A stretch of 12,969 nucleotides of DNA from the IMG/VR virus record IMGVR_UViG_2602041671_000010. One strand, 5' to 3'. The translations under genes were made by a program, and so were the position numbers. The DNA is from a virus (lineage: Duplodnaviria > Heunggongvirae > Uroviricota > Caudoviricetes). The notes beneath the pieces were generated by a model. It was not told the origin of the DNA. It made no database searches and saw only the letters and a list, made by a program, of their open reading frames with translations. Numbering within the stretch: the first letter of the stretch is position 1; every line of letters starts with the position of its first letter. Below, one piece after another: positions 1 through 12,969 of the stretch.

Positions 1-463
1 ATGTCGATATGGGGATTCCCATATCGGGAACCCTACCGGATTTTTTTCCGGTTAACAGTTAATCAGGCTGGTGGGCTTTACATACCCTTGATCACCGTAA
101 TGATGATCCAGATGTGCACCTTTTCCACCAATGGCGGAAAAGCTCCAACCGTAACGATGATCGCTATGGTTGCCTCGATGGTCTGCGTGGTCATTATGAC
201 CATTCAGCCAGTGACCTTAATCAGAATTTTTCGCTAAAAAATGACGTTGGCCACGTCATCCGGAAAGCACAAAATCACGTCGATTTTTAATGAACGGTTA
301 AACCGTCTTTTTGTCACGGTGTGTCACTGGTTGTCACTCTCCGTCACGATTGAGGTGGTGGTCATTCTGCCCGACCGCGCATTTTTGCGCTATCGGGAAT
401 ATAAAACAGTTACCGCCGTCATTCAGCCAGCGCAATTTTGAGCTTTGCTTTAATCTCAGTGAG

Positions 464-745
464 TTACCGCCGTAACCGCTCCGGCTTCTTCCAGTGGTAC
501 GTGATTTTCTCCTTCTCCCGATACATCTCCACGCGGCGACGGTATGCCAGCAACTCAAGGACTCTGGTTCGTATGTTGCGCATATCCACGCCGTTAAGCT
601 CAATACCATCACGGCGCATCACCTCAGCAACCACACGCGCATAATTTTCGGCGGTCACGCTGTCCGGCTGCGTGGCCTGTTCGTCAGCCTGCTGGCTGAT
701 TCCGGCAACGCGACGGATTAATCGCAGTAGTTCGGCTTCTGTCAT
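464..745 (-). CDS. hypothetical protein (93 aa) immediately downstream of terL
   Basis: ORF in track; ATG at 745 preceded by GAGGT Shine-Dalgarno about 7 nt upstream; 13 nt after the TerL stop; no recognisable motifs. Confidence 0.5.
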   Translation of the reverse strand: MTEAELLRLIRRVAGISQQADEQATQPDSVTAENYARVVAEVMRRDGIELNGVDMRNIRTRVLELLAYRRRVEMYREKEKITYHWKKPERLRR

Positions 746-758
746 GCTGCTGACCTCA

Positions 759-2420
759 TTACACCCCGCTAAATTCTTCCAGTTTCTGGCGGTGGCTGTC
801 GCTTATATCAAAAGCAAAATCCTCATGCTCTGCCTGGAATGTACCAAACGCCATCAGCGCCGCCACGCTCGGGTCTATCTTGTTCGGTGATTTTTTCTTG
901 TTCGGCTTGATATTGGCGTTCGCGTCACTCTGCATCACGACGTTACTCATCGACCAGGACAACACCGGATCGCCACGATGCACAATCACCCTGCGGTTAA
1001 CAAAAACTTCGAACGATTTCGCCGCCGGACTGAATCTGAGGTAGGTTTGCGGGAACGGCTCCACCTCAAAACCAGCCCCCTGTAATTGCGTCCTGAGATG
1101 CGTGGCGTTCCACGTATCAAAGCCCACCAGCCTGATATTAAATTTCTCCGCATCCTGCATGATGTCATCTCTGATCCGGTCGTAATCAATGCAGTCACCT
1201 GGCGTTGTGCGTATCCAGCCCGCTTTAGCCCACTGGCGATAGACAGCGCGGTTTTTATTGGCGGGGTTCTGTAGCTGGAACTCCGGCAGATAATGACGGG
1301 AAACCAGCATGATATTTTTACCGACCGGAAAGGCATAGCACACGCTGGAAATATCGCTGGTTGATGATAAGTCCAGCCCCGCGTAACACTCCTGCCCGTG
1401 TAAATCTTCCTCCGTGAACGTTCCGGCACACTCAGCCCATGCGCCGTTACCCATCCACGGGGTAGCCCCCTGGCACCAGATATTAAATCGCTTTGTCATC
1501 ATCTCCACCCATTGCGACGGAATACCCCGCGCTTTCTGGATGGTTGAGGCCAGTTTTTCACGATCCACGGAAACATCGATGTTAGGGTTAGCCTTTATCC
1601 ACATCGCCGGATCATCAACCTCGTTTTCGTCGTCCAGCTCGTAAATCAGCACAAAAATTGAATCGTTGACCTCTTCGCCGTCCAGGATCTGGCAGCAATA
1701 ATCATAGTGCTGTTTACAGGTTGAAACGACGTTACTGCCCGATGTGGTAATGGCAAATAACAGCCCTTCGGGACGTGCGCCCATCCCCAGCTCAAGCGCG
1801 GAATAAACGCCGTTATCGGGGTGTAGGTGGTATTCGTCCACGATGGAAAGGCTTGGGTTTGTGCCCTCGATGGTTGCCGCTTTTGCTGCCAGCGGCTTTA
1901 ACAGGCTGTTGCTTTTCGGGTGCATCACCTTGTGGGCCTGAATATTCACCCGCCTGCGTAACGGTCGGGATAAAAGGCACATCTGACGCGCATCATCAAA
2001 AACGATCCGCGCCTGGTCACGGCTCACCGCTGCGGTGTAAATATCCTGCTGCCCGTTCTCCATAATCAGAAACCAGTTAGCCAGAATCGCGGCGGTCGTG
2101 GATTTCGCATTTTTGCGCGGCACTTCGATAAAGGCGCTCGTGTATTTGCGCCGTCCGGTGGCCTTAACCTTAAAGCCGAGGATGCACGCAAAGGCGAACT
2201 GCTGCCACGGCTCCAGCTCAATGGGTCTGCCACGCATCGGCCCTTTTACGTGCAGGCACACCCTGGAAAAGGCAATAAACCGCTCCACAACCTCACGATC
2301 GAACGTGTAAAGGGGGCTTTCAAGGTCCGAAAAGTACCGTTTAACGGCCTGTTTCAGCCGTTTACAGGCCGGAATTTTGCCCGTTTTTACGTCTTCTGCG
2401 TACTTATTCCAGGCGGTCAA
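759..2420 (-). CDS. terL: terminase large subunit (553 aa)
   Basis: Long ORF of typical TerL size; P-loop-like segment VPRKNAKSTTAA near the N-terminus and acidic C-terminal half consistent with ATPase plus nuclease domains; start overlaps the TerS 3' end by 17 nt as in coupled terminase genes. Confidence 0.88.
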   Translation of the reverse strand: MTAWNKYAEDVKTGKIPACKRLKQAVKRYFSDLESPLYTFDREVVERFIAFSRVCLHVKGPMRGRPIELEPWQQFAFACILGFKVKATGRRKYTSAFIEVPRKNAKSTTAAILANWFLIMENGQQDIYTAAVSRDQARIVFDDARQMCLLSRPLRRRVNIQAHKVMHPKSNSLLKPLAAKAATIEGTNPSLSIVDEYHLHPDNGVYSALELGMGARPEGLLFAITTSGSNVVSTCKQHYDYCCQILDGEEVNDSIFVLIYELDDENEVDDPAMWIKANPNIDVSVDREKLASTIQKARGIPSQWVEMMTKRFNIWCQGATPWMGNGAWAECAGTFTEEDLHGQECYAGLDLSSTSDISSVCYAFPVGKNIMLVSRHYLPEFQLQNPANKNRAVYRQWAKAGWIRTTPGDCIDYDRIRDDIMQDAEKFNIRLVGFDTWNATHLRTQLQGAGFEVEPFPQTYLRFSPAAKSFEVFVNRRVIVHRGDPVLSWSMSNVVMQSDANANIKPNKKKSPNKIDPSVAALMAFGTFQAEHEDFAFDISDSHRQKLEEFSGV

Positions 2421-2760
2421 GCTCGTCCTCTTCTTCTGTTTCCGGTGGATTTTTACGGCGGCTTATCGGGTCAAAACCGAGCAAGGAGGCCATTTTTATC
2501 ATCACTCTTTCAGCGTCGGATTTTGCGCTTAATGCGGGGTTTCTGCTCTCGCCGCCCTGACTGTTAACAATGCTGAACCCGCGCGCCGCAAGGTCTGCAA
2601 CGGCTTTCCGGTAAATGGAGTAGTTGACACAATACAGTTCCAGATTGCTCCAGTCGGCGGGGGTCAGGTCTCCCCGTTCCGCAAGCTGCCGCGATTTTTC
2701 CCGCCACTGCTTCACGGCGATGTCATCCAGGTAGGCGGGGGCTTTCGGTGGTCTTGCCAT
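2404..2760 (-). CDS. terS: terminase small subunit, P27-like family (118 aa from ATG 2760; ORF track extends to 2805)
   Basis: N-terminus MARPPKAPAYL resembles the GRPPKP-type start I recall for P27-family TerS; lies directly upstream of and overlapping terL; neither candidate start has a clear SD, so the start is uncertain. Confidence 0.72.
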   Translation of the reverse strand: MARPPKAPAYLDDIAVKQWREKSRQLAERGDLTPADWSNLELYCVNYSIYRKAVADLAARGFSIVNSQGGESRNPALSAKSDAERVMIKMASLLGFDPISRRKNPPETEEEDELDRLE

Positions 2761-2884
2761 GCTTATTTTTTTCGCCAGATTATTTTTCAAAAAATTCCCG
2801 TGCATAAAAATTTGAGGAGGCGTTCGGTGCCCGGCGGGGTCGGGTTTGTCCTGAAAACGCCCCCCACCCCGTCATACAGCCTCA

Positions 2885-3067
2885 TCAGCGATTGCGGAAA
2901 CATTCCATAACCTCGCGGTCACGGTCGGTTAATCGCTTCGCTGTGATGCGTTCTGCGCGTCCTGACGCTTTATCTTTATGCCCTGTTTCCTGTGTCTTCC
3001 ATGCGTCACGCTGCCTTATAAGTCCACGGATAAGGCGGTTTTGTTCCCGCTCATTCATCAGCGTCAT
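2885..3067 (-). CDS. small basic hypothetical protein (60 aa) between HNH and terS; may not be real
   Basis: ATG at 3067 in the frame of track ORF 2885..3289; highly charged helical-looking sequence; weak RBS; sits in a 245-bp HNH-terS gap that may instead hold a cos site. Confidence 0.3.
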   Translation of the reverse strand: MTLMNEREQNRLIRGLIRQRDAWKTQETGHKDKASGRAERITAKRLTDRDREVMECFRNR

Positions 3068-3491
3068 ACATCCAGTTATTGCGGTTAGCGGCCCGTTCTT
3101 CCTCTTCACGAAATCCACCTGCGGCACGCTTGCTTTTTGTTGCCGGATCAAGCCATTTCGTTTTCTGGTTATGACACGCCTGGCACAATGGTTGATGGTT
3201 CCATTCGGGCCAGAAGAGAACATCATCACCGCCATTAATCGGGATAATGTGATCCACCACCACGGCGGGCGTATATATCCCCTTCTCAAGGCATCGCACG
3301 CATAACGGGTTTTTACTCAGATACATGGCGCGGTATTTGTCCCACTGTCTGGAATATCCACGCGCGCGGCGGTGTCCTCGTCTGGCATCCTCTGCACGCC
3401 ATGCCGCCCGCCTGTGCTCCTCACACTTGCCGGATTTAACGCGCCTGTTACAGCCTGGTTCTGTGCATCGTCTTAATGGTTGCCACGGCAT
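3051..3491 (-). CDS. HNH endonuclease (146 aa), terminase-associated
   Basis: Cys pairs and catalytic-type motif: CNRRV...C, CVRC, VDHIIPINGG, QPLCQACHNQK; located immediately upstream of terS-terL as in HK97-like cos phages; start overlaps the stop of the upstream connector gene. Confidence 0.88.
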   Translation of the reverse strand: MPWQPLRRCTEPGCNRRVKSGKCEEHRRAAWRAEDARRGHRRARGYSRQWDKYRAMYLSKNPLCVRCLEKGIYTPAVVVDHIIPINGGDDVLFWPEWNHQPLCQACHNQKTKWLDPATKSKRAAGGFREEEERAANRNNWMYDADE

Positions 3492-3787
3492 CAGTACACC
3501 CCCACATCACGGTAAGCCGTCCAGAGTGCGCCAATCGTCATGGGTACGCGTGTTTTTGCGTTATCCGCGACAATCTGGCGATTCTCATACAGGTGAGCGA
3601 TAAACATCATGCAGCCAATCTTTATGGCTGGCGTGAACTCCAGCCCGTCATCAAAGCGCCTGCCTATGTGTATCTGGCACGCCTCAAGCGATGCGGCAAT
3701 GTATCCGCTGATTAACTGGTCTTCCTCGTCTCCATCGATACGGCAATGGAGTTTCACTTCTTCCAGGGTGATAAGTTCTTCTGTCAT
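3491..3787 (-). CDS. head-tail connector protein, gp6-like (98 aa)
   Basis: Size, position between head closure gene and HNH, and overall sequence character typical of phage gp6-like connector proteins; assignment by recognition, not search. Confidence 0.65.
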   Translation of the reverse strand: MTEELITLEEVKLHCRIDGDEEDQLISGYIAASLEACQIHIGRRFDDGLEFTPAIKIGCMMFIAHLYENRQIVADNAKTRVPMTIGALWTAYRDVGVY

Positions 3788-4122
3788 TTTTCCGCGCCCT
3801 CACGACAAAGAATTTCAAGGCGTGTCCTGGCGACATCCGGCAACGGCTGCCCGATGATATTCAGTACACGCCCCGCCAGCGGCCCCGTACTGACCTTTAT
3901 CCGGCTGGTGGCGTTGATGTCCTTCCGGTACCGTATCCAGATCCTTACGGTACCAATCGCCAGCTCTGCGCCCGATGAAATGGCCTCCTTGCTGCTGATC
4001 ATGTTCACGCTTGCCCAGAGTGTGTGACCGTCCTCCCACGTTTCGAGTATTTCGCCCGTCATGGCTCTGGTCTGTTTCAGGGTCTGAATCGTTATCCTGT
4101 CACGCAGTCGCCCTATGTTCAT
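3784..4122 (-). CDS. head closure / head-tail joining protein (about 112 aa; likely start ATG 4122, track ORF extends to 4164)
   Basis: MNIGRLRDRITIQ N-terminus is typical of head-tail joining family proteins; ATG 4120-4122 overlaps the portal stop (ATGA-type overlap), whereas the track start would overlap portal by 46 nt. Confidence 0.68.
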   Translation of the reverse strand: MNIGRLRDRITIQTLKQTRAMTGEILETWEDGHTLWASVNMISSKEAISSGAELAIGTVRIWIRYRKDINATSRIKVSTGPLAGRVLNIIGQPLPDVARTRLEILCREGAEK

Positions 4123-5330
4123 TCCGGTTTTTCTCCCTCGCTGATTTTTACTTCCTGTTTCCATGCCTGACTGAACTCATCACCACCATCACGCGGTGAC
4201 AGTCCTTCACGTTCGCGGGCTTCGTTCGGGCACATAACGCCGGATTTGATGCCGCGCTCATAGGTGGCAAAGCGTTCGCCAGGTGTGGCCCGTAACAGGT
4301 CCGCGCTGTCAAACTCCACCTGATACCGGATACCAGGTACAGGCGAGGCCACCAGCAGGGCGTTTTTTATCTGCTGCTCAAAGTTCGCCAGCCACGGGCG
4401 CATCGTCATGGTGAGAAATGCGCGGCTTGCCTCGCTGAAATTGCTGTAGGTGCTGTTGCTGTATTCCTGCAAAAAAATCGGCGAGACGTTGAACATTCGG
4501 GCGATGTCTTCAATGGTAAAGCGACGGGAGGCCAGCCATTCAGCATCCTGATTACTCATGCCCAGCTGCTGATAGCTCATCCCCCCTTCAAGGATGGGCG
4601 TTTTTCCGGCGTTTCTGGCCCCTTTGTAGCGTTCCAGTGCGGCTAATGCCTGTTTGCCCTTCACGCCGTCCAGCCATTCGCCTGACGTGATAACCCCTGC
4701 CGCCATCATGCCATCACGCATCACGCTCGCGCCGTGGCGTTGTTGGGCCAGCCCAAGCCCCAGCGATTCGCGGCAGATGGTTACAGGTGAGCGCCCCATA
4801 AAGCCGTCATCCGTGGAGTAACGAAGGTGAAGTACTTCCCATGGTAAATAGTTGTGGGTGTTTCCGGTGTAGGCGTCAGTGATGCAATAGCGCCAGTTGT
4901 GTTCGCCTGTCTGCTCCACGTTCACCGACTGCGGCGGGTAAGGATGTAAAGCCGCCGGAAAACCATCACGCCCCCACTGAATAACCGCATAAGCATTACC
5001 GTTTAACAGGCAGTGGCGGATCATCATTCGCTTAAACTGGTAGGGAGTCTGCCACGCGTTCGGGCGCTCGTTGAGGATGTGATCGACCGGATGAGAATCA
5101 AGCCACTCGCGGGCCTCCTTCCCCTTCTCATTGCGTACCAGGTACAGGTAACACGGCATAGTAGCCACCGCCTCAGAGATGACCGTGACGGCGTTCATGA
5201 CGGCGGGCAGTGATTCCGCTGTCCCCGATGATACGTACTCACCCGCCCCCGTGTTCGATGTGCCAGCCAGCGCCATAAATTCATCAAGCGTCATGCTGCG
5301 CTGCTCTTTTTTTCTTCTGAAAGGCCACAT
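4119..5330 (-). CDS. portal protein, HK97-like family (403 aa)
   Basis: Size and position between prohead protease and head closure genes; sequence has the overall character of HK97-family portal proteins. Confidence 0.85.
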   Translation of the reverse strand: MWPFRRKKEQRSMTLDEFMALAGTSNTGAGEYVSSGTAESLPAVMNAVTVISEAVATMPCYLYLVRNEKGKEAREWLDSHPVDHILNERPNAWQTPYQFKRMMIRHCLLNGNAYAVIQWGRDGFPAALHPYPPQSVNVEQTGEHNWRYCITDAYTGNTHNYLPWEVLHLRYSTDDGFMGRSPVTICRESLGLGLAQQRHGASVMRDGMMAAGVITSGEWLDGVKGKQALAALERYKGARNAGKTPILEGGMSYQQLGMSNQDAEWLASRRFTIEDIARMFNVSPIFLQEYSNSTYSNFSEASRAFLTMTMRPWLANFEQQIKNALLVASPVPGIRYQVEFDSADLLRATPGERFATYERGIKSGVMCPNEAREREGLSPRDGGDEFSQAWKQEVKISEGEKPE

Positions 5331-5331
5331 A

Positions 5332-5904
5332 TCACACCCCCGCTAAATCCACCCACCAGCGGCGATTATCCGCACGCGGCATTTTTTCGGGGTGCTGCTC
5401 ATACAGGGAACGGCGGGCCAGCTCCACGCCGGAATCAGGGTAAGCCGGAACGGATGTAACGGTAATTTCGTACAGTTCCGCCACCAGCACGGTGCGCACG
5501 CATGGTTCTGTTGTGGTATCCCATACATCCTTACGGGAACGAAAGCCAAAGCTCATGCCGGATATATCACCACGTTTAACCAGTTCGATAACGTCCCGCC
5601 CTGTGCTGGTATCCGGTGGGGTCAGTTCAAAGCGTAACCCTGTTTCGTCCTCTTCCAGTTTCAGCGTGCCGGAACGGGTACGCCCCAGTAACATGCTGTG
5701 GTCATGCTCATACAGGCCGCGAACGTCATTACCCGCTGCAAGCCATTCAGTAAACGCTCCCCGCTGGAATTTTTCGTAAAACTCACCCCATAACAGTTCT
5801 GAAAGCTTATCCCAGCGAACAACGTAGCCCGTCAGCGTACCGGCTCCGCTGGTGGTGATTTCCGATGACCGGATTTCCATACTCTTCATAATTTTTTCAC
5901 CCAT
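5332..5904 (-). CDS. prohead maturation protease, HK97 family (about 185-190 aa; start 5904 or 5889)
   Basis: Small protein between capsid and portal genes, 2 nt before the portal ATG; size and position match the HK97 prohead protease; ATG 5889 has a better SD (GGTGA) than 5904. Confidence 0.82.
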   Translation of the reverse strand: MGEKIMKSMEIRSSEITTSGAGTLTGYVVRWDKLSELLWGEFYEKFQRGAFTEWLAAGNDVRGLYEHDHSMLLGRTRSGTLKLEEDETGLRFELTPPDTSTGRDVIELVKRGDISGMSFGFRSRKDVWDTTTEPCVRTVLVAELYEITVTSVPAYPDSGVELARRSLYEQHPEKMPRADNRRWWVDLAGV

Positions 5905-5933
5905 AAAACACTAAAGGGGCTTTTAAGCCCCTT
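5905..5933 (-). terminator. stem-loop between capsid and protease genes (GGGGC/GCCCC) with a U-rich tail; likely partial terminator or stabiliser
   Basis: Inverted repeat GGGGCTT/AAGCCCC at 5916-5931; on the minus-strand RNA it is followed by UUUAGUGUUUUAU. Confidence 0.5.
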
Positions 5934-5943
5934 CTGTATGCTG

Positions 5944-7100
5944 TTAATCGTCGTCCTGTGGCAGTTCCAGAATCTTGATCGCGTTCGAATCCACCACGCC
6001 ACCGCCTAAATATTTCTGCGTGAAAATTTTGATGAAGCCCGGCTCTGTGAGGTTGTCCGGTCTGGTGCGAACACCTGTTTCGTGATCAACAATGTAGTAA
6101 CCGCGCTTGAAGTCACCCAGGGCAATAACGTTATCAGGCATAAACTCCAGATATTCGACCGGAAGGCCCAGCAACGTATCAGGATCACCCGCCTGTAAAC
6201 GGTCGCGCCAGATGTAATCACCGTTCGCGTTCTTCACCTTCTGAAGTTTTGCCGCCGTCGTGGAGTTAACCACCCAGACCGCGTTTTTGCGGTATTTTTT
6301 ACGTAATGCAAATTTCAGGTCGATCAGCGGGTCCGCAGATGTCCACGCCAGAGATTCGGAAGGTTTAATTACCTGCAACGTACCAAAATCACGCTCTTTG
6401 TCGTTCTTCTCTGCACGGGGTACGGATAAAAAGCCTTTTGCTTTTTTGTCACCGTCGCCCACAACCAGATCGCTTTCTTCGGTTTCCGTGAAGGTGTCGC
6501 CAATCTCACCCGTCAGCCATGAAAGGATGTCCACATCGGAAAAATCCACGATTTCCTGTGTGGTGCGCGGGTACGCATAGACCGGATACAGCTTAATGCT
6601 CACCTCGTTAATCTGCGGGGTGCTGGTCTGTTCGCGTGCCTTACCCTCTTCACCGTGGTTAACGGTCGCACCGCCAGCGGAAACAAGCTGCTTAAACTCG
6701 TTGCTGCTGATTTTTTCACGGTACAGATGCGGCGCATGGTGGACTCATCCACCAGCATTCGCATGATTTCGGTGTTCAGTTCGGGGATAACGGTATAACC
6801 ACCATCAGCGGGAACGCCTGTACTTAATGCGCGGGTTTCACCTGTCAGAATGTAGCTGCGTAGTTCTGCGGGGTCAGTGGTCTGGCTGCTTTTACCTGGC
6901 TTGCTGCGCTCTTCGTCTGCAATGGCTTCAAGGCGGGAAATGTCTTTATCGAGGGATTCAGCTTTAGCGCGTAATTCGTCAAATTTTGCGCCCTCAGCAT
7001 CGTTAAGACTGCGGTTTTCTTTTTCCGCGTTCTCCAGCATGTCGCGCATCTGATTTTTAATGGCGGTTTTCTGCTGGCGTAATTCGATTATTCTCGGCAT
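5944..7100 (-). CDS. major capsid protein, HK97 fold, interrupted by a 1-nt frameshift in an A6 run (6711-6716); N-terminal coiled-coil delta domain
   Basis: N part (track ORF 6600..7145 from ATG 7100): coiled-coil then GETRALSTGVPADGGYTVIPELNTEIMRMLVDESTMRRICTV. C part (track ORF 5944..6603): my own translation of the same frame upstream of 6603 gives ISSNEFKQLVSAGGATVNHGEEG, continuing into LYPVYAYP...VVGDGDKKAKGFL, matching HK97-family conserved blocks. The two parts join if the run were A7. Confidence 0.8.
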
Positions 7101-7140
7101 AAAAAAAAGTCCTGGGGTTAAGTAAGGAACTCCAGGACGC
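7101..7140 (-). terminator. intrinsic terminator abutting the major capsid ATG
   Basis: Minus-strand RNA GCGUCCUGGAG-loop-CCCCAGGAC followed by U8, then AUG directly. Confidence 0.65.
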
Positions 7141-7321
7141 GGCAAAAACTCAACCGTTTTTCATAAGGGAATCAGCAATCGCACCGATCGTTTTCCCGCC
7201 TGGTAATGAATATTGGCGAGCACATTAACAGGCGGGAAAGTGGCCCCAGCGTCCTGGCACCACGGGCGAGAATAATCATGATTCAGTTCGGGTAAAATAT
7301 GCCGATCCGCTCAGTGAACAA
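7141..7321 (-). promoter_or_regulatory. candidate late promoter (-35 TTGTTC, 16-nt spacer, -10 TATTTT at 7294-7321) and roughly 185-nt structured leader
   Basis: Promoter-like hexamers read on the minus strand; leader contains an 11-bp stem (UUUCCCGCCUG/CAGGCGGGAAA) and a CCAGGACGC element complementary to the terminator 5' arm. Confidence 0.4.
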
Positions 7322-7360
7322 CGTGGAACAACCACGAACAAATAATTTACAAAAAATAAC

Positions 7361-7383
7361 AAAAAGCCGGATTGCTCCGGCTG
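7361..7383 (-). terminator. intrinsic terminator (GCCGGA-TTGC-TCCGGC plus U-run on the minus strand)
   Basis: Perfect 6-bp GC-rich stem with tetraloop; A5 on the plus strand equals a U-run 3' of the hairpin on the minus-strand RNA; downstream of ORF 7393..7617. Confidence 0.7.
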
Positions 7384-7392
7384 TATGGGTGC

Positions 7393-7617
7393 TCAGTCCC
7401 TGATCCCTTTCAGAAATTCTATCAATGCATCTGTCTGTTCAGGATTTACCGCCAGCATTTCACCGGATAGCGCGCAACGAACAAAACCATGATGATCCTT
7501 TTCAATCAGCGCCCCCGTTTCCAGGAATGCTCGGTAATCAGTGATGTTCATCGTCTCCATGTTGTCAGCATGGTATTTATCACGCTGTTTTAATATCTCA
7601 TCAAATTTCGTCGGCAT
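7393..7617 (-). CDS. hypothetical small protein (74 aa) in a terminator-insulated monocistronic unit
   Basis: ATG 7617 preceded by AGAGGA SD about 7 nt upstream; flanked on both sides by near-identical intrinsic terminators; no recognisable motifs. Confidence 0.6.
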   Translation of the reverse strand: MPTKFDEILKQRDKYHADNMETMNITDYRAFLETGALIEKDHHGFVRCALSGEMLAVNPEQTDALIEFLKGIRD

Positions 7618-7712
7618 TGTTTTTTCCTCTGTTGTGTCTGTTTGTTTCAGATAGTAACTATGCCGGACCGTGACGAAAAGCCAGTAGTGCGCCATACCAT
7701 TTCAAATGACGC

Positions 7713-7736
7713 AAAAAAAGCCGGATTGCTCCGGCT
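7713..7736 (-). terminator. intrinsic terminator, near-identical copy of the 7361..7383 hairpin
   Basis: AGCCGGA-TTGC-TCCGGCT with A7 on the plus strand (U7 tail on the minus RNA); downstream of ORF 7759..8007. Confidence 0.7.
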
Positions 7737-7758
7737 GCGTGGTGTGGTTCTGATATTC

Positions 7759-8007
7759 CTACTCAGCTAATTTGCTCAGCCCCATGTCTGCATAAGTGCG
7801 ATTTACTGCATTTCTCAGGTCTGCGTAGTTCTCCGTTGGCGGCTCCGGTGGCCTCTGTGCCTTCCTGGAACATTCCAGCCGTCGCATCGTAACCTGATGC
7901 CGTTCCTTGTCTGTCTCCACCAGTTGCATGACTTCACCCCATCGCGCCGACGCCCTCCGGTAAAAGCCTTTTGCCTCGAGTTCCTCCGCTATGCGGTCAT
8001 GTACCAT
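7759..8007 (-). CDS. hypothetical protein (82 aa from ATG 8007; track ORF extends to 8127)
   Basis: ATG 8007 has a GAGGGGG SD at good spacing and avoids overlap with ssb; upstream starts overlap ssb; followed by an intrinsic terminator. Confidence 0.5.
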   Translation of the reverse strand: MVHDRIAEELEAKGFYRRASARWGEVMQLVETDKERHQVTMRRLECSRKAQRPPEPPTENYADLRNAVNRTYADMGLSKLAE

Positions 8008-8017
8008 CGTCACCCCC

Positions 8018-8428
8018 TCAGAACGGAATACCGTCACCGTAAGGGTCATCGCCTCCCGCTGGTGGCTGATTACCCTGTGTGCCTGTGGTTTTGCGTCTGT
8101 TCCCGCCTGGACGTGCCGCGCGGGCACTGATTACGCTGTCTGCAATAACCTGATACCCCTGCCGTGTTTCCCCGTTCTGTCCGGTCCACTGGCTGATCTG
8201 CATGTTACCCGCCACGGTCAGGAGTTCACCTTTGCGGTGCCTTGCCAGTGCTTCGGCCTGTCTGCCAAATGCCAGGACGGATAACCACATCGTCACCGTT
8301 CCGTCATCTGCCTGGCTGCACGGAAGGGGGACCGCCATACTCGCCATCGTCATTTGTGTACCCTTGCTGGTGGTCTTTAACTGCGGGTCAGCCACCAGCC
8401 GCCCGTAAGCTGCAATTTGTGCTGTCAT
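8018..8428 (-). CDS. ssb: single-stranded DNA-binding protein (136 aa)
   Basis: OB-fold-like N-terminal region, Gly/Pro/Gln-rich linker and acidic C-terminal tail ending DDPYGDGIPF (compare the DDDIPF tail of bacterial SSB); GAGGTGG SD 4 nt upstream of ATG. Confidence 0.8.
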   Translation of the reverse strand: MTAQIAAYGRLVADPQLKTTSKGTQMTMASMAVPLPCSQADDGTVTMWLSVLAFGRQAEALARHRKGELLTVAGNMQISQWTGQNGETRQGYQVIADSVISARAARPGGNRRKTTGTQGNQPPAGGDDPYGDGIPF

Positions 8429-8505
8429 ATTGCCACCTCAGTGAAGCGATCCGGCGTTGTTCTTTTTCATCTTTTTCATCTCTTCCATCATTTTTTCAGT
8501 GAGCA

Positions 8506-8751
8506 TTACGCACTGAAAACCCATTTTTTGATGTCTACGGGTTTCATGCCTTTGTCAGTGGATATCACAGGCAGAATATCCTGATACACATCGCGGTCAG
8601 GGTAACTAAGCACACAAAGCGCCCATGATGCCACGGGTGAGGATCCTTCGTCTGTTTCAACCCACCAGCCTGGTGTAGCTGCGCTTATTTGCAGAATCGT
8701 GATCCGTCCGTTGTGCTTGTAAAATTTTTCACCAAATTTTGCTTCGCTCAT
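8506..8751 (-). CDS. hypothetical protein (81 aa)
   Basis: Strong SD (GGAGAGGTGG); ATGA overlap with the stop of the upstream ORF suggests translational coupling. Confidence 0.55.
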   Translation of the reverse strand: MSEAKFGEKFYKHNGRITILQISAATPGWWVETDEGSSPVASWALCVLSYPDRDVYQDILPVISTDKGMKPVDIKKWVFSA

Positions 8752-8990
8752 GATTCCACCTCTCCGGTTTTAACGTTGATTGTTGTTACCTGTTCCGCTT
8801 CGGCAATCTCCCGCTCTGTCAGCGTGGCAAAATTTGCCGCCGTCGTGGTCATGAATGCGCTTATCAGTTCGGGATGTGCTTTCGCGTATCCTTCCCCCGC
8901 GTGGCGGTCTATTACCCTGATTGCCACCTTTAAGGCGTGCTCTGTCATGTCTAACGCTTTATATTTCGGCCCTGTTCTGTCTCTGCGCAT
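8748..8990 (-). CDS. hypothetical protein (about 80 aa; track ORF starts at 9017)
   Basis: ATG 8990 preceded by GAGGAG SD at 9-nt spacing; the 5' end of the track ORF overlaps the iteron array. Confidence 0.5.
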   Translation of the reverse strand: MRRDRTGPKYKALDMTEHALKVAIRVIDRHAGEGYAKAHPELISAFMTTTAANFATLTEREIAEAEQVTTINVKTGEVES

Positions 8991-9000
8991 TTTGGTTATC

Positions 9001-9203
9001 TCCTCACTCATGCTCACTTTTACACCTCACTTTTTAAAGCGTCTCGCTTCGTCTCAGTTGATATTTTTTGATGCTTTATGTGCGTGTTTCATAAGGATTT
9101 TTTTACTCCTCACTTTTGAGCATGTATACAGGTGAGAAAGTGAGTAATCGTGTTAATATTTTGTAAAAACCTCACCATTACTCACTTTTGCTACTCACTT
9201 TTT
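9001..9203. repeat. iteron array, putative replication origin
   Basis: Five direct copies of CTCACTTTT (9013, 9026, 9109, 9181, 9194), two extra CTCAC cores (9003, 9171), an inverted pair GTGAGAAAGTGAG (9132-9144) and an AT-rich stretch (9055-9105), immediately 3' of the replication gene stop. Confidence 0.6.
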
Positions 9204-10599
9204 ACAGTGGTCCTACATCATCACCATCAATGTAAATCACGGCGTCTTTTTCCAGTTTGGCTAACCATCGCCGCATATTTTTCACGTCATACCCAAGCCG
9301 TTTCATGTCATCACGTAACAGCGGGATCGTGCACTTGTCGCCGTTCTGTGTGCGTGAACGGATGCACCCCCATAGTGCGGTATGGTTTTCCGTCTTGTTG
9401 CCTGCCTCCTCGATGCGCTCCAGTTCAACGGGAGGGCGCGGCTTATCCACCACCACCAGCGACGTGATTAACTCCCCGTCAGCGTCGGTAAACAGCTCCA
9501 CCACGCGTAAGTCATATGCGGCTTCTTTGAGTTCCTCCGCGTCCTTCATTTTGGTGCATGAGATAACCAGCGCTTCGCTTCCTGCGTCCTCCCTGCGTAT
9601 CCGGTATTCAGCATCCAGCGAAGCACGAAATGCACTGGAACCGCGCGCGCCTTTCGTCTCATCCTTGCCGGAATGGTGAACCACCAGCACCGTGGCCCCT
9701 GTGCGCCGTTTAAGCTCGTCACACCCACGGATAAACGCCCCCATATCACGGGAATCATTTTCATCATTGCCACCAAAGCAACGCGCCAGAGTATCAAGAA
9801 TAATCATGCGTACAGGTTTACCCGTTTCCCGCTCCACCTGACGGGCAGCGATAACCAGTTCATCAACATCAAGCGGGACAGCCGGAAAAACTGGACGGTT
9901 TACCAGATACAGATTTTTCACCTGCTCACCGTGCACAACCTCCCAGGCTTTTACACGACGCGGAACGCCGATACCGCCTTCACCAACCACATAGAGAACA
10001 GCGCCATGCGCCACCCTGCGGCCTCCCCACTGGCGGCCCGTGGAAACGTGACACGCCCACGAACCCGCAAGGAATGATTTATAGGAACCGCTTGCCCCGT
10101 ATATGCTGCATAGCGACGATGCCGGAATAATCCCCTTTACCACGTAATCTAATTGCGTGTCGTATCCGGCAGATCCAACGCTCATCGGTAGCGTGGTTTT
10201 TCGCTGGTGGTGTTCTTCCCCTGGCTTTTTCCCCCGCTCCCGTTCCAGATATTCGCGCCAGTTCTCCCGCTTCTGGCTGTGTATCCCTTCGGGGTAATAA
10301 TTCGCATCAGTTACGCCCGCCGCCGCCAGCTTGTGCGCAATGGCATTAATATTTGATGGCCTGATGTGGCCTGCCTTGTACAGCCGGACACAATAGCGCC
10401 CCTCGTCGATGATTCTCAGGTCTGCCAGTTCATCCAGTTGATCATCAGCCAGCACAATGGGAGGCACATTATCGCCAGCCAGTCGCCCGTCCTGTTCCTG
10501 CCACTGTTTCGCATGTGCCCACGCATCACTACCCGCAAAAATGATGACTTCGGTCATCTTGTCGTAAGGCTGTTTTTTTAAGTTCGGTGCGCTTTTCAT
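9202..10599 (-). CDS. replication protein: RecA-like P-loop ATPase (AAA_25/RepA-like), putative primase/helicase (465 aa)
   Basis: Deviant Walker A GASGSYKS, Walker B-like RMIILDT, HHSGK motif typical of RepA/DnaB-like ATPases; ATGA overlap with the upstream gene; iteron array immediately after its stop. Confidence 0.75.
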   Translation of the reverse strand: MKSAPNLKKQPYDKMTEVIIFAGSDAWAHAKQWQEQDGRLAGDNVPPIVLADDQLDELADLRIIDEGRYCVRLYKAGHIRPSNINAIAHKLAAAGVTDANYYPEGIHSQKRENWREYLERERGKKPGEEHHQRKTTLPMSVGSAGYDTQLDYVVKGIIPASSLCSIYGASGSYKSFLAGSWACHVSTGRQWGGRRVAHGAVLYVVGEGGIGVPRRVKAWEVVHGEQVKNLYLVNRPVFPAVPLDVDELVIAARQVERETGKPVRMIILDTLARCFGGNDENDSRDMGAFIRGCDELKRRTGATVLVVHHSGKDETKGARGSSAFRASLDAEYRIRREDAGSEALVISCTKMKDAEELKEAAYDLRVVELFTDADGELITSLVVVDKPRPPVELERIEEAGNKTENHTALWGCIRSRTQNGDKCTIPLLRDDMKRLGYDVKNMRRWLAKLEKDAVIYIDGDDVGPL

Positions 10600-10895
10600 T
10601 TCTTGCCCCTGAATCCGTTAATCATGTTTTTCATCTTCTGAATATTGGCGCGTGCTTTCTCCCTGCAGGTGGGCACGTTATGCGGCGCGGTCTGTACCAG
10701 AGAAAAATCACGCCGGAACTGATAAACAGGCATCACGCAATCATATTCGTAGCCTTCACGACGGTAGGTGATGCGCCGTTCTGCCACGCCTTTAATCGTT
10801 ACCGTACCGCCGTAGTTATCACGGAAAATATCGCCGGGGCGGATTTCAGGCCGAGAGAAGTCACTGGCAGTAAAGCCAGAATTTTTCTTTTTCAT
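10596..10895 (-). CDS. small conserved hypothetical protein (99 aa), possibly DUF4222-like
   Basis: ORF translationally coupled to the replication gene (ATGA overlap at 10596-10599); DUF4222 assignment is from memory of P4-like replication modules and is unverified. Confidence 0.45.
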   Translation of the reverse strand: MKKKNSGFTASDFSRPEIRPGDIFRDNYGGTVTIKGVAERRITYRREGYEYDCVMPVYQFRRDFSLVQTAPHNVPTCREKARANIQKMKNMINGFRGKK

Positions 10896-11086
10896 GGTTT
10901 TTATTTTCCTGTCAGTGATTCAAGTTTTATTCCGGCACGAATACAGGCCTCAGAAAAAAAGCCAGAGAACCAACAACCTCATTATTTCTAAGGCGGCATT
11001 GTGATTTCACTTTCCCTTTATCGAGAAATATCAAAACGCGTCCCGTATAATCTGACGGCACATTAAGAACTACAGGTAAGTGCGCT

Positions 11087-11281
11087 TCATAATTGTGCAT
11101 GGTGCGCCCCCTGACGAATACGGGCGGCGAACACAGCAACACAACCGTACGGGCAACGGTTACGCGCTTCGCGTTCCGTCCAGGCGGTTACGTGGATGAT
11201 TTGATGGTCTGACGCGCCAAAGGCAATAAAGCGCCAGATAAAGGCTGTTTGAGAATGTACGAGGGCAGGGGTAGTAGCCAT
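11087..11281 (-). CDS. Icd-like small protein (64 aa), paralog 2
   Basis: ATG 11281 with strong SD GAGGAGG 8 nt upstream; motifs TAFIWRF, TEREAR, VFAARI resemble what I recall of Icd-like host cell division inhibitor proteins. Confidence 0.5.
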   Translation of the reverse strand: MATTPALVHSQTAFIWRFIAFGASDHQIIHVTAWTEREARNRCPYGCVAVFAARIRQGAHHAQL

Positions 11282-11650
11282 GTTGGCAGCCTCCTCAGTG
11301 TGGTTAAGATAACCGCCACGCAAAAGGCTAATTTCGCTGGTGGCGGACTGTACAGGGTTAGCCTTACCGGACACTGAAGAAACCGGCGCGGATTGCTCCG
11401 CCCCCGTACAGCCCACCATTGATAAGGTGTGACTATGCGGCACAAAAAAACACGCGGGGCGCGTGCTGTGCGCTTCAGTTGTTTTCAGGAGGCTAATCCC
11501 GACACCCGTTTTATGAGGTGCGCGGGAATCATAGCTATTTTCGACACTGGCGATCAACTGGTTTTTTTCTCCGATATTCAGGGCCAGAAAACGCCACACA
11601 AAGGCAGTTTGTGTGTGTACAAGGTGTGGTATATGATTTACAGCAACCAT
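11282..11650 (-). CDS. Icd-like paralog 1; ATG 11650; no in-frame stop before paralog 2, so nominal product is the 187-aa read-through
   Basis: ATG 11650 with AGGAG SD 5 nt upstream; N-terminus LVHTQTAFVWRFLA parallels paralog 2; an intrinsic terminator-like hairpin (11441-11465) lies inside the reading frame. Confidence 0.4.
11441..11465 (-). terminator. terminator-like hairpin between the two Icd-like paralogs (CACGCG-CCC-CGCGUG plus U7)
   Basis: Minus-strand reading CACGCGCCCCGCGTGTTTTTTT; 6-bp stem with short loop followed by a T-run. Confidence 0.45.
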
Positions 11651-11740
11651 AACGGCTCCTAGTTTACGTTGTTGGTTAGAAGCCCCGTTACTGCTCCTAC
11701 AGTGCGGGGTTTCGTCGTTTCAACACCTTGCCTAAATAAG

Positions 11741-11792
11741 GTGTTGAACACCAATTTAAATCGAGGTGTTAAACACGTCAAGTGTTGAACAC
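11741..11792. promoter_or_regulatory. three inverted-repeat operator sites GTGTT-N-AACAC in the divergent control region, overlapping a candidate promoter for the RHH gene
   Basis: GTGTTGAACAC at 11741-11751 and 11782-11792, GTGTTAAACAC at 11766-11776; -35 TTGAAC (11785-11790) and -10 CATACT (11807-11812) at 16-nt spacing. Confidence 0.55.
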
Positions 11793-11841
11793 TTATTTTT
11801 TTCCTGCATACTGCATTTGTTTTTTATGAGGGGTGCTCAAC

Positions 11842-12021
11842 ATGGCGACAAAAGCAGTAAACGCAAAATCACAAACAGTTGCGGCAAGGGTTCCACATGA
11901 AGTTATGAACAATGTTGAGGCGGTAAAAATGCCCGGCGAAAGTACAGGGCAGTTTGTTACAGCTGCATTAAAGCGGGAAGTTGAATACCGCCAGCGTCGC
12001 AAGGCCAAAGAATCAGAATAA
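11842..12021 (+). CDS. Arc/Mnt-like ribbon-helix-helix DNA-binding protein (59 aa)
   Basis: ATG 11842 with GAGGGG SD 8 nt upstream; N-terminal beta-strand-like TVAARVPHEV followed by two short helices; upstream inverted-repeat operators. Confidence 0.6.
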   Translation: MATKAVNAKSQTVAARVPHEVMNNVEAVKMPGESTGQFVTAALKREVEYRQRRKAKESE

Positions 12022-12025
12022 TCAC

Positions 12026-12070
12026 CATCAGCGCCGTGGCGTGAGGTACTACGGCGCATTGCTTTACAGG
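12026..12070 (+). repeat. conserved 45-bp hairpin spacer, copy 1 (copy 2 at 12711..12755)
   Basis: CATCAGCGCCGTGGCGTGAGGTACTACGGCGCATTGCTTTACAGG; two-mismatch copy after the second RHH gene; contains a GCGCCGT/ACGGCGC stem. Confidence 0.6.
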
Positions 12071-12078
12071 GCAGTACC

Positions 12079-12306
12079 ATGACCAACAACACACTATCAC
12101 CAATACAAGACACGCAGACGCAAGAAGATGAAATCATTCGGCAAAGGCAGTTAGAAACCTGTGCTCGCCTTGAAGCCGAACTGGCTAATCCTCTGAATAT
12201 CCAACTAATACCGATAGAAATGAAACCTGGACTATTCGCGTTGGAGGCATTTTTAGCAAGCTGCCCACGGCGGCTAAAGTCCCGTAAGAATCGCCCGCCA
12301 GGATGA
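12079..12306 (+). CDS. hypothetical protein (75 aa) downstream of the first RHH gene
   Basis: ORF in track; preceded by a conserved 45-bp hairpin spacer; N-terminus MTNN parallels the second cassette's downstream gene (MTNK); weak SD. Confidence 0.45.
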   Translation: MTNNTLSPIQDTQTQEDEIIRQRQLETCARLEAELANPLNIQLIPIEMKPGLFALEAFLASCPRRLKSRKNRPPG

Positions 12307-12439
12307 GTACACAAAACCGAACTATGAAACGGATTATTCCGTTTCCGGGGCGTTTGTGTGTGTATAAAGAGTAAGCTATGCTCTTTTATAGCCATAATCG
12401 TTACCTCAATTAATGGTTTGGTTAGACGCCCCGTATGTG

Positions 12440-12476
12440 TTCCCATCACTGCGGGGCGTTGTTTTTTGTGCTAGTT
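12440..12476 (+). terminator. intrinsic terminator between the two plus-strand cassettes
   Basis: ACGCCCCG...CGGGGCGT 8-bp stem followed by TGTTTTTTGTG. Confidence 0.55.
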
Positions 12477-12482
12477 GTGTGT

Positions 12483-12508
12483 AATGTGTATATACACATA
12501 AACACATT
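12483..12508. promoter_or_regulatory. nested palindromic operator upstream of the second Arc-like gene
   Basis: 16-bp perfect palindrome ATGTGTATATACACAT (12484-12499) containing a TATATA -10-like element, flanked by outer inverted arms AATGTGT/ACACATT. Confidence 0.6.
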
Positions 12509-12526
12509 ATATGGAGTGTAATTGAC

Positions 12527-12706
12527 GTGTCAACACACAAAAATGAAAGGCGTGGTAATCCTCCTTTCCAGTTCCGTTTAGATCCTGACTTACGGGAAAA
12601 GATGGAAAAAGCACAACAACAAGACGGTGATGACTCTTTAGCAGCTTGGATAAAACGAATAATCCGAAAAGAATTACAGCAACGCGGTATTGAACCCAAA
12701 GAATAA
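12527..12706 (+). CDS. Arc-like ribbon-helix-helix repressor (59 aa, GTG start)
   Basis: Translation NPPFQFRLDPDLREKMEKAQQQDGDDSLAAWIKRIIRKELQQRG closely resembles the Arc repressor pattern (PQFNLRWPREVLDLVRK...); GGAG SD 10 nt upstream; 16-bp perfect palindrome just upstream; below the 60-aa cutoff so absent from the ORF track. Confidence 0.7.
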   Translation: MSTHKNERRGNPPFQFRLDPDLREKMEKAQQQDGDDSLAAWIKRIIRKELQQRGIEPKE

Positions 12707-12763
12707 AAAACATCAGCGCCGTGGCGTGAGGAACTCCGGCGCATTGCTTTACAGGTACACACA

Positions 12764-12969
12764 ATGACCAATAAAGAATCAACCAATACACCATCGCAAA
12801 AAACGAACAGAGAGCACGAAAATATGGCGCTCGAGCATGAATCAGAAAGATTCGCTCCATGCGCTTTTGTCCTTGATGAGTTTCTAAAAAAATATTCACG
12901 TTCTGAACGGATGAAAATGGCAGCACAATACGGCCCCAACAAGCAAGGTAATTGCCCACCAGCCTGATA
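12764..12969 (+). CDS. hypothetical protein, 3' end beyond the window (partial)
   Basis: ORF in track runs to the window edge; same position and MTN start as 12079..12306 in the first cassette. Confidence 0.4.

Follow-up and report, generated by a model that had tools for sequence, protein, structure and literature searches.

The major capsid gene of a capsid-forming PICI changes frame at an A6 run, probably through a homopolymer under-call

The window carries the packaging module of a capsid-forming PICI

The window, a stretch of 12,969 nucleotides held in IMG/VR as record IMGVR_UViG_2602041671_000010, has all of its genes on the minus strand. All seven packaging genes have Pfam matches and are arranged in the order capsid, protease, portal, connectors, hnh, terS, and terL. 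Leaving aside the capsid gene, every gene of this cf-PICI packaging module (759 to 5904, minus strand) is intact, as follows:

5332-5904, minus strand: prohead protease (S78); Pfam match, intact
4119-5330, minus strand: portal; Pfam match, intact
3784-4164, minus strand: head closure protein; Pfam match, intact
3491-3787, minus strand: head-tail connector, gp6-like; Pfam match, intact
3051-3491, minus strand: HNH endonuclease; Pfam match, intact
2404-2805, minus strand: TerS, P27-type; Pfam match, intact
759-2420, minus strand: TerL; Pfam match, intact

Upstream of the capsid gene are genes for PerC, SSB, an AAA_25 RepA-type helicase, DUF4222, and Ash. The last of these is a single ORF of 187 aa at 11087-11650 (minus strand) with a match to Phage_ASH; for the identical sequence in Escherichia coli 94-3024, RefSeq has an Icd-like protein and an "incomplete" ash pseudogene, an inconsistency of annotation that is unrelated to the homopolymer sites described below.

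The near-identical locus in the chromosome of strain 94-3024 extends the picture beyond the window, in that Phage_AlpA and a tyrosine integrase lie just past what corresponds to the right end of the window. In the 15.2-kb stretch of that locus, the island spans from the integrase, which runs from ~14.8 kb to beyond the stretch, to the gene after terL at ~1.5 kb, and phoQ is located at its flank. No tail genes are annotated in this island. The gene order of proteobacterial cf-PICIs, of which EcCIEDL933 is the prototype, was defined previously (Alqurainy et al., bioRxiv 10.1101/2022.09.08.507074). EcCIEDL933 in E. coli O157:H7 EDL933 shares with the window the order from capsid to TerL, has int, alpA, and a replication module upstream, and is likewise without tail genes. 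Based on this gene content and order, the element is predicted to be a known cf-PICI of the EcCIEDL933 type, and we suggest that the island in the window is best annotated as an intact EcCIEDL933-type cf-PICI. Only for EcCIEDL933 has it been described that small capsids are formed, fitted with tails of the helper phage, and transferred (bioRxiv 10.1101/2022.09.08.507074). The capsid region is without a match in the INPHARED phage collection, a result more in line with a satellite than with a phage.

Among the relatives, the 94-3024 locus (L001) and the loci L002, L015, L016, and L017 have one packaging module in common and differ in their replication modules, which comprise an AAA_25 RepA helicase, DUF927, or a D5_N/DUF5906 primase. 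This packaging module is present at at least two chromosomal sites, one by phoQ and one by mdtJI and an AI-2 transporter gene. The window differs from other cf-PICI relatives in having the AAA_25 RepA-type module, located by phoQ in 94-3024, whereas the others have D5_N or DUF927 primases and are found at other sites. Such variety of replication modules and sites is the modular mosaicism expected of PICIs.

The reading frame of the capsid gene changes at an A6 run

The plus strand reads T6 at 6711-6716, which corresponds to A6 on the coding (minus) strand of the capsid gene. The parts of the gene on either side of this run are as follows:

6711-7100, minus strand: the first 130 capsid codons (MPRIIEL...CTVKK), read in the frame set by the ATG at 7100
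6711-6716, minus strand: A6 homopolymer, the point at which the capsid frame shifts; all relatives that share the flanks have A7
6600-6710, minus strand: end of the N-terminal ORF, read out of frame over 36 nonsense codons and a stop, probably resulting from the missing A
5944-6711, minus strand: capsid codons 131-385 (ISSNEFKQLV...LPQDDD) and stop, in the -1 frame

The N-terminal ORF starts with the ATG at 7100 and contains 130 sense codons (MPRIIELRQQ...MRRICTVKK, minus strand); after A6, 36 more codons follow out of frame before the stop at 6600-6602, giving a truncated product of 166 aa. The -1 frame (...REKISSNEFKQLVSAGGATV...) is open to a stop at 5944-5946 (minus strand), and this C-terminal frame, continuing from the A6 run, reads ...REKISSNEFKQLVSAGGATVNHGEEGK... 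The parts 6711-7100 and 5944-6711 overlap by a single base, which is the missing A. The earlier note had placed the change of frame in the capsid gene at the A6 run at 6711-6716 from a hand translation, and both its coordinates and its translation are correct. In the Pfam profile Phage_capsid (PF05065), the N-terminal ORF covers positions 1-33, while the 219-aa C-terminal ORF covers positions 71-279; two colinear halves of one Pfam domain are not a chance pattern.

One additional A yields an HK97-fold major capsid protein

The earlier note had also proposed that one extra A would restore a capsid protein of about 385 aa, and this holds: the joined 385-aa protein matches PF05065 from 1 to 279 of 280 in one stretch (E=1.2e-61), with 209 bits compared with a gathering cut-off of 24.2. 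The alignment to HK97-family capsids that it had proposed as a check gives a full-length match not only to the profile but also to a protein of known structure, as the repaired protein aligns over residues 1-385 to residues 1-385 of the PDB chain 9gyi_B ("Major head protein"; E=7e-255, ~99% identical). The two differ at three residues over the full length and are identical across the junction (CTVKKISSNEFKQLV). The HK97-family capsids 6tb9 and 6tba (RcGTA and HK97-family) match the repaired protein at ~1e-46. The gene for the prohead protease, which matches Peptidase_S78 with E=9e-48, adjoins the capsid gene downstream (5332-5904, minus strand). The PF05065 fold and an adjacent S78 prohead protease are features that the window has in common with HK97 gp5-type capsids. 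By profile, by structure, and by the adjacent protease, the repaired product is an HK97-fold major capsid protein.

The window differs from the E. coli O104:H21 94-3024 chromosome by run contractions

An alignment to the chromosome of E. coli O104:H21 94-3024 (NZ_CP009106.2) spans the entire window. From 731 to 12969, there are 0 substitutions in 12,243 aligned bases, and the only differences are four one-base deletions. All four are contractions of A/T runs in the window (7 to 6, 7 to 6, 8 to 7, and 8 to 7):

6711-6716, plus strand T7 to T6: contraction 1, breaks the capsid gene
8524-8529, plus strand T7 to T6: contraction 2, frameshifts a 104-aa hypothetical gene (~8437-8751, minus strand)
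10954-10960, plus strand A8 to A7: contraction 3, frameshifts a 66-aa hypothetical gene (minus strand)
11796-11802, plus strand T8 to T7 relative to 94-3024: contraction 4, intergenic

The capsid, 104-aa, and 66-aa ORFs, each of them intact in relatives, are disrupted by three of the four contractions. Among the 8-runs, two out of three are contracted, and among the ~12 7-runs, two are; runs shorter than 7 are unaffected. Natural relatives of the island have 44-178 substitutions per 2-5 homopolymer indels when compared with 94-3024, which argues that four indels with 0 substitutions would be a base-calling pattern and not natural divergence. By rough arithmetic from the ratios in the relatives, the chance of four indels without a substitution is ~(1/17)^4, or about 1e-5.

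The remainder of the alignment, at the left end of the window, has a different composition:

17-730, no strand assigned: left end, a mosaic of two loci by its alleles relative to the 94-3024 chromosome

In positions 17-76 and 422-730, the alleles are those of a paralogous locus at ~805 kb in NZ_CP009106.2, and in positions 82-418 and 746 onward, they are those of the cf-PICI locus at 1.97 Mb; window positions 419-745 are 100% identical to the ~805-kb locus. The latter adjoins the cai operon and belongs to another small element with genes for TerS, head decoration, and major capsid proteins. A Logan contig of the sequencing run SRR927598 does not contain the mosaic, so that a consensus of a collapsed repeat in the draft assembly fits better than a real recombinant. 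The left-end mosaic is probably such a collapsed-repeat consensus, which would be one more sign that the window derives from a draft, and we do not favor the view that it arose by real gene conversion.

Relatives have A7 at the capsid run

Of 5,426 complete E. coli genomes, 358 have the capsid gene, and the A6-bearing 81-mer has no exact match among these 358 genomes. In all 100 matches listed, there is one base more than in the query; 40 rows came from the full-gene search, while the 81-mer ranking supplied its 12 best and 60 spaced evenly along it, with some genomes repeated. Both EDL933, in whose chromosome this capsid gene has the additional base, and Sakai are among the genomes listed. 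RefSeq annotates the capsid gene as one 385-aa protein in all 100 genomes listed. Similarly, the plus strand reads T7 in nine of nine IMG/VR contigs with the same flanks. One of the IMG/VR loci, L010, is identical to 94-3024 across 10.7 kb save for one gap, which is not one of homopolymer length, and has the longer run at all three of the contraction sites that it covers. Taking the four contraction sites together, the longer run is present in all flank-matched relatives, the one exception being T7 at 11796 in L015, an assembly in which many genes are broken. A scan of GTDB species representatives and metagenome contigs for the T6 or T7 pattern found neither allele and is uninformative either way.

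Many family members (L015-L019) read GTG AAG AAA ATC where others read GTG AAA AAA ATC. A7 is therefore not conserved in the capsid family, and AAGAAAA is a synonymous variant of the two Lys codons.

Because a 219-aa C-terminal ORF is also found in five other assemblies (L015-L019), a recurrent break at the A6 run was considered; this candidate was rejected, since the breaks in these assemblies are at other positions, namely, a C4 to C3 contraction near 6620, a T3 to T2 contraction near 6696, and a run of N in a scaffold. The loci in question read AAGAAAA at the site of the A6 run of the window. In three of the five (L015, L016, and L019), other genes of the module are split as well, and L018 is interrupted by the scaffold N run.

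The A6 allele is found in two read sets from 2013

The exact truncated product of 166 aa is on record only in the Logan assemblies of SRR927597 and SRR927598, two runs from 2013; look-ups of the exact products of the two other truncated small ORFs gave nothing on record. Compared with 94-3024, the contigs from SRR927597/8 have 0 substitutions over 3.7 kb and 7.1 kb. Both have private run-length errors, which are an A3 to A2 contraction that splits terL in one contig and an A8 to A9 expansion at 7101-7108 in the other. These discordant errors argue that run-length calling in those reads is unreliable.

Our search of the literature for the accessions SRR927597 and SRR927598 found no paper; published sequencing histories exist for the strains from which we believe the runs derive. 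CFSAN002236 and CFSAN002237 (O104:H21, Montana outbreak) first appeared as drafts sequenced on Ion Torrent PGM to 30x and assembled with CLC (PMC3790099), and their SRA experiments are SRX319158 and SRX319159 (PMC4393859). CFSAN002236 is ATCC BAA-178, which is CDC 1994-3024. The sequence CP009106.2 was finished by PacBio and checked with Ion Torrent (PMC4393859). According to a paper on a proficiency test, which names the strain and not the accession (PMC6113870), a reference genome of CFSAN002236 was obtained by PacBio and polished by Pilon with 2x250 Illumina reads; we take this genome to be CP023541.1. Both CP009106.2 and CP023541.1 read A7. From sequence identity, dates, and consecutive accessions, we infer that SRR927597/8 are runs of CFSAN002236/7 and that the window was taken from a draft of the O104:H21 Montana outbreak strains made with Ion Torrent reads.

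The frame break is best explained as a sequencing error

We favor, with a probability of about 0.9, that A6 is a one-base homopolymer under-call and that the capsid gene is intact in the organism. According to this model, the true sequence would be A7 (GTG AAA AAA ATC) and would encode an intact 385-aa HK97-fold capsid of a cf-PICI; flow-based sequencing (Ion Torrent PGM or 454) would have dropped one A, and the error would have been carried into the draft consensus. This explanation is preferred because the window differs from the finished genome only by homopolymer contractions and because its relatives all have A7. Under-calling of long homopolymers is the characteristic error of flow sequencing, and systematic under-calls of 7-mers are usual on flow platforms. 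The same A6 call is present in the window and in both runs SRR927597/8, which suggests that the error would be systematic and not random; a real shared allele would fit this observation too. The differences in the window are like the errors of flow sequencing (Ion Torrent PGM, 454) in that they affect run length only, are under-calls, and are concentrated in runs of at least 7, the platform behind the window being one that we infer. Homopolymer-length errors of flow-based platforms are described in PMC3711422 and PMC5001236.

The earlier note had left a homopolymer error, an inactivating mutation, and slippage side by side without ranking; of these, the homopolymer error is now strongly favored, while the other two are disfavored. 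It had also named A7 at the read level as evidence that would point to an assembly error; the nearest substitute for such evidence is that A7 is found in two finished genomes of what is apparently the same strain and in all the other relatives. Relative to EcCIEDL933, the sole difference relevant to the frame break would be the missing A, which we put down to sequencing. The frame break is probably best explained as something other than a new biological feature. We suggest that the capsid frameshift and the three other contractions in the window be treated as draft-assembly errors and that no pseudogenes be called from them; the useful outcome is a corrected annotation of the capsid gene and of the two small ORFs.

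The strongest of the alternatives, although an unlikely one, is a genuine and recent A7 to A6 frameshift by replication slippage that would inactivate the only capsid gene of the island and leave it immobilized and without small capsids of its own. Long A/T runs are natural hot spots of slippage, the A6 allele is present in the window and two read sets, and frameshifted capsid genes are found in other assemblies of the cf-PICI family. The last point is weakened by the finding that the split capsid genes of L015-L019 break elsewhere, with other genes split in three of the five and the N run in L018. More directly, a recent mutation does not account for 0 substitutions alongside four homopolymer contractions in 12.2 kb, nor for the further and mutually inconsistent homopolymer errors in the assemblies of SRR927597/8; moreover, two finished genomes of the apparently identical strain have A7, and A6 is found in none of the 358 other genomes. 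What a real break would entail is clear, since mutations in the packaging module of the prototype, the capsid gene included, abolish transfer (bioRxiv 10.1101/2022.09.08.507074). If the break were real, the satellite would have lost, or put under the control of slippage, the protein that gives it independence from the capsid of its helper.

Such control by slippage has still less in its favor. We consider it very unlikely that A6 is real and that the A7 tract acts as a slippage-prone on/off switch of the capsid, or that the gene is rescued by slippage, and the same applies to the other long A/T runs.

More improbable again is that A6 is real and recoded at a low level, either by a -1 slip of the P-site tRNA-Lys on AAA AAA T or by the addition of an A by RNA polymerase. 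The candidate slip site would be GTGAAAAAATCAGC, and either route would give the exact wild-type sequence ...TVKKISS... at a reduced level. The arrangement of the frames is compatible with this idea, as the C-terminal frame is -1 relative to the N-terminal frame and a -1 slip on the second AAA would restore the wild-type sequence. However, the shift site is not conserved: no programmed -1 or slippage site, and no need for a shift, is found in the homologues, all of which are in frame with A7 or with AAGAAAA, and the latter interrupts the run. In addition, the 0 frame reads GTG AAA AAA TCA, in which a G precedes the run (G|AAA|AAA|T), so the site is not a full X XXY YYZ heptamer; furthermore, the fold predicted for a 106-nt segment that takes in the run and the sequence downstream of it is no more stable than those of shuffled sequences (z = -0.68). 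For transcriptional slippage to be efficient in E. coli, a run of ~8-9 or more is needed. Inefficient recoding would also fit poorly with the need for hundreds of copies of the major capsid protein in each particle. The programmed frameshifts known from the structural modules of tailed phages are in the tail assembly chaperone (such as G/GT) and not in the major capsid gene; the capsid gene of the window has no homologue that conserves a shift. The sequences compared give no evidence of programmed slippage at the capsid A6 run.

That the two ORFs are two separate genes is refuted, because nothing beyond ORF calls in error-containing assemblies speaks for it, the ORFs are colinear parts of one Pfam domain and of one solved 385-aa chain, and the homologues, which the earlier note had said would refute its reading if they were two separate genes, are single 385-aa proteins in the RefSeq annotation of all 100 genomes listed.

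Terminator-like hairpins lie upstream of the packaging module

On the coding strand, three terminator-like sites precede the packaging module. Two are identical hairpins at 7719-7736 and 7365-7382 (minus strand), each consisting of AGCCGGAGCAATCCGGCT followed by a T run; they lie on either side of a 74-aa hypothetical ORF (7393-7617) that is located between perC and the capsid gene. The third is a hairpin at 7109-7138 (minus strand; GUCCUGG...CCAGGAC, -14.1 kcal/mol, z = -4.08), which is followed by a U8 run at 7101-7108 and then directly by the capsid ATG at 7100. This hairpin is terminator-like, and its 3' arm contains the only AGGA able to serve as a Shine-Dalgarno sequence. The length of the U run at 7101-7108 is naturally variable among relatives, being 7 or 8, and is 9 in one noisy contig. 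The hairpin at 7109-7138 together with the U8 run may serve the packaging operon as a terminator with a regulatory role or as an element that controls translation.
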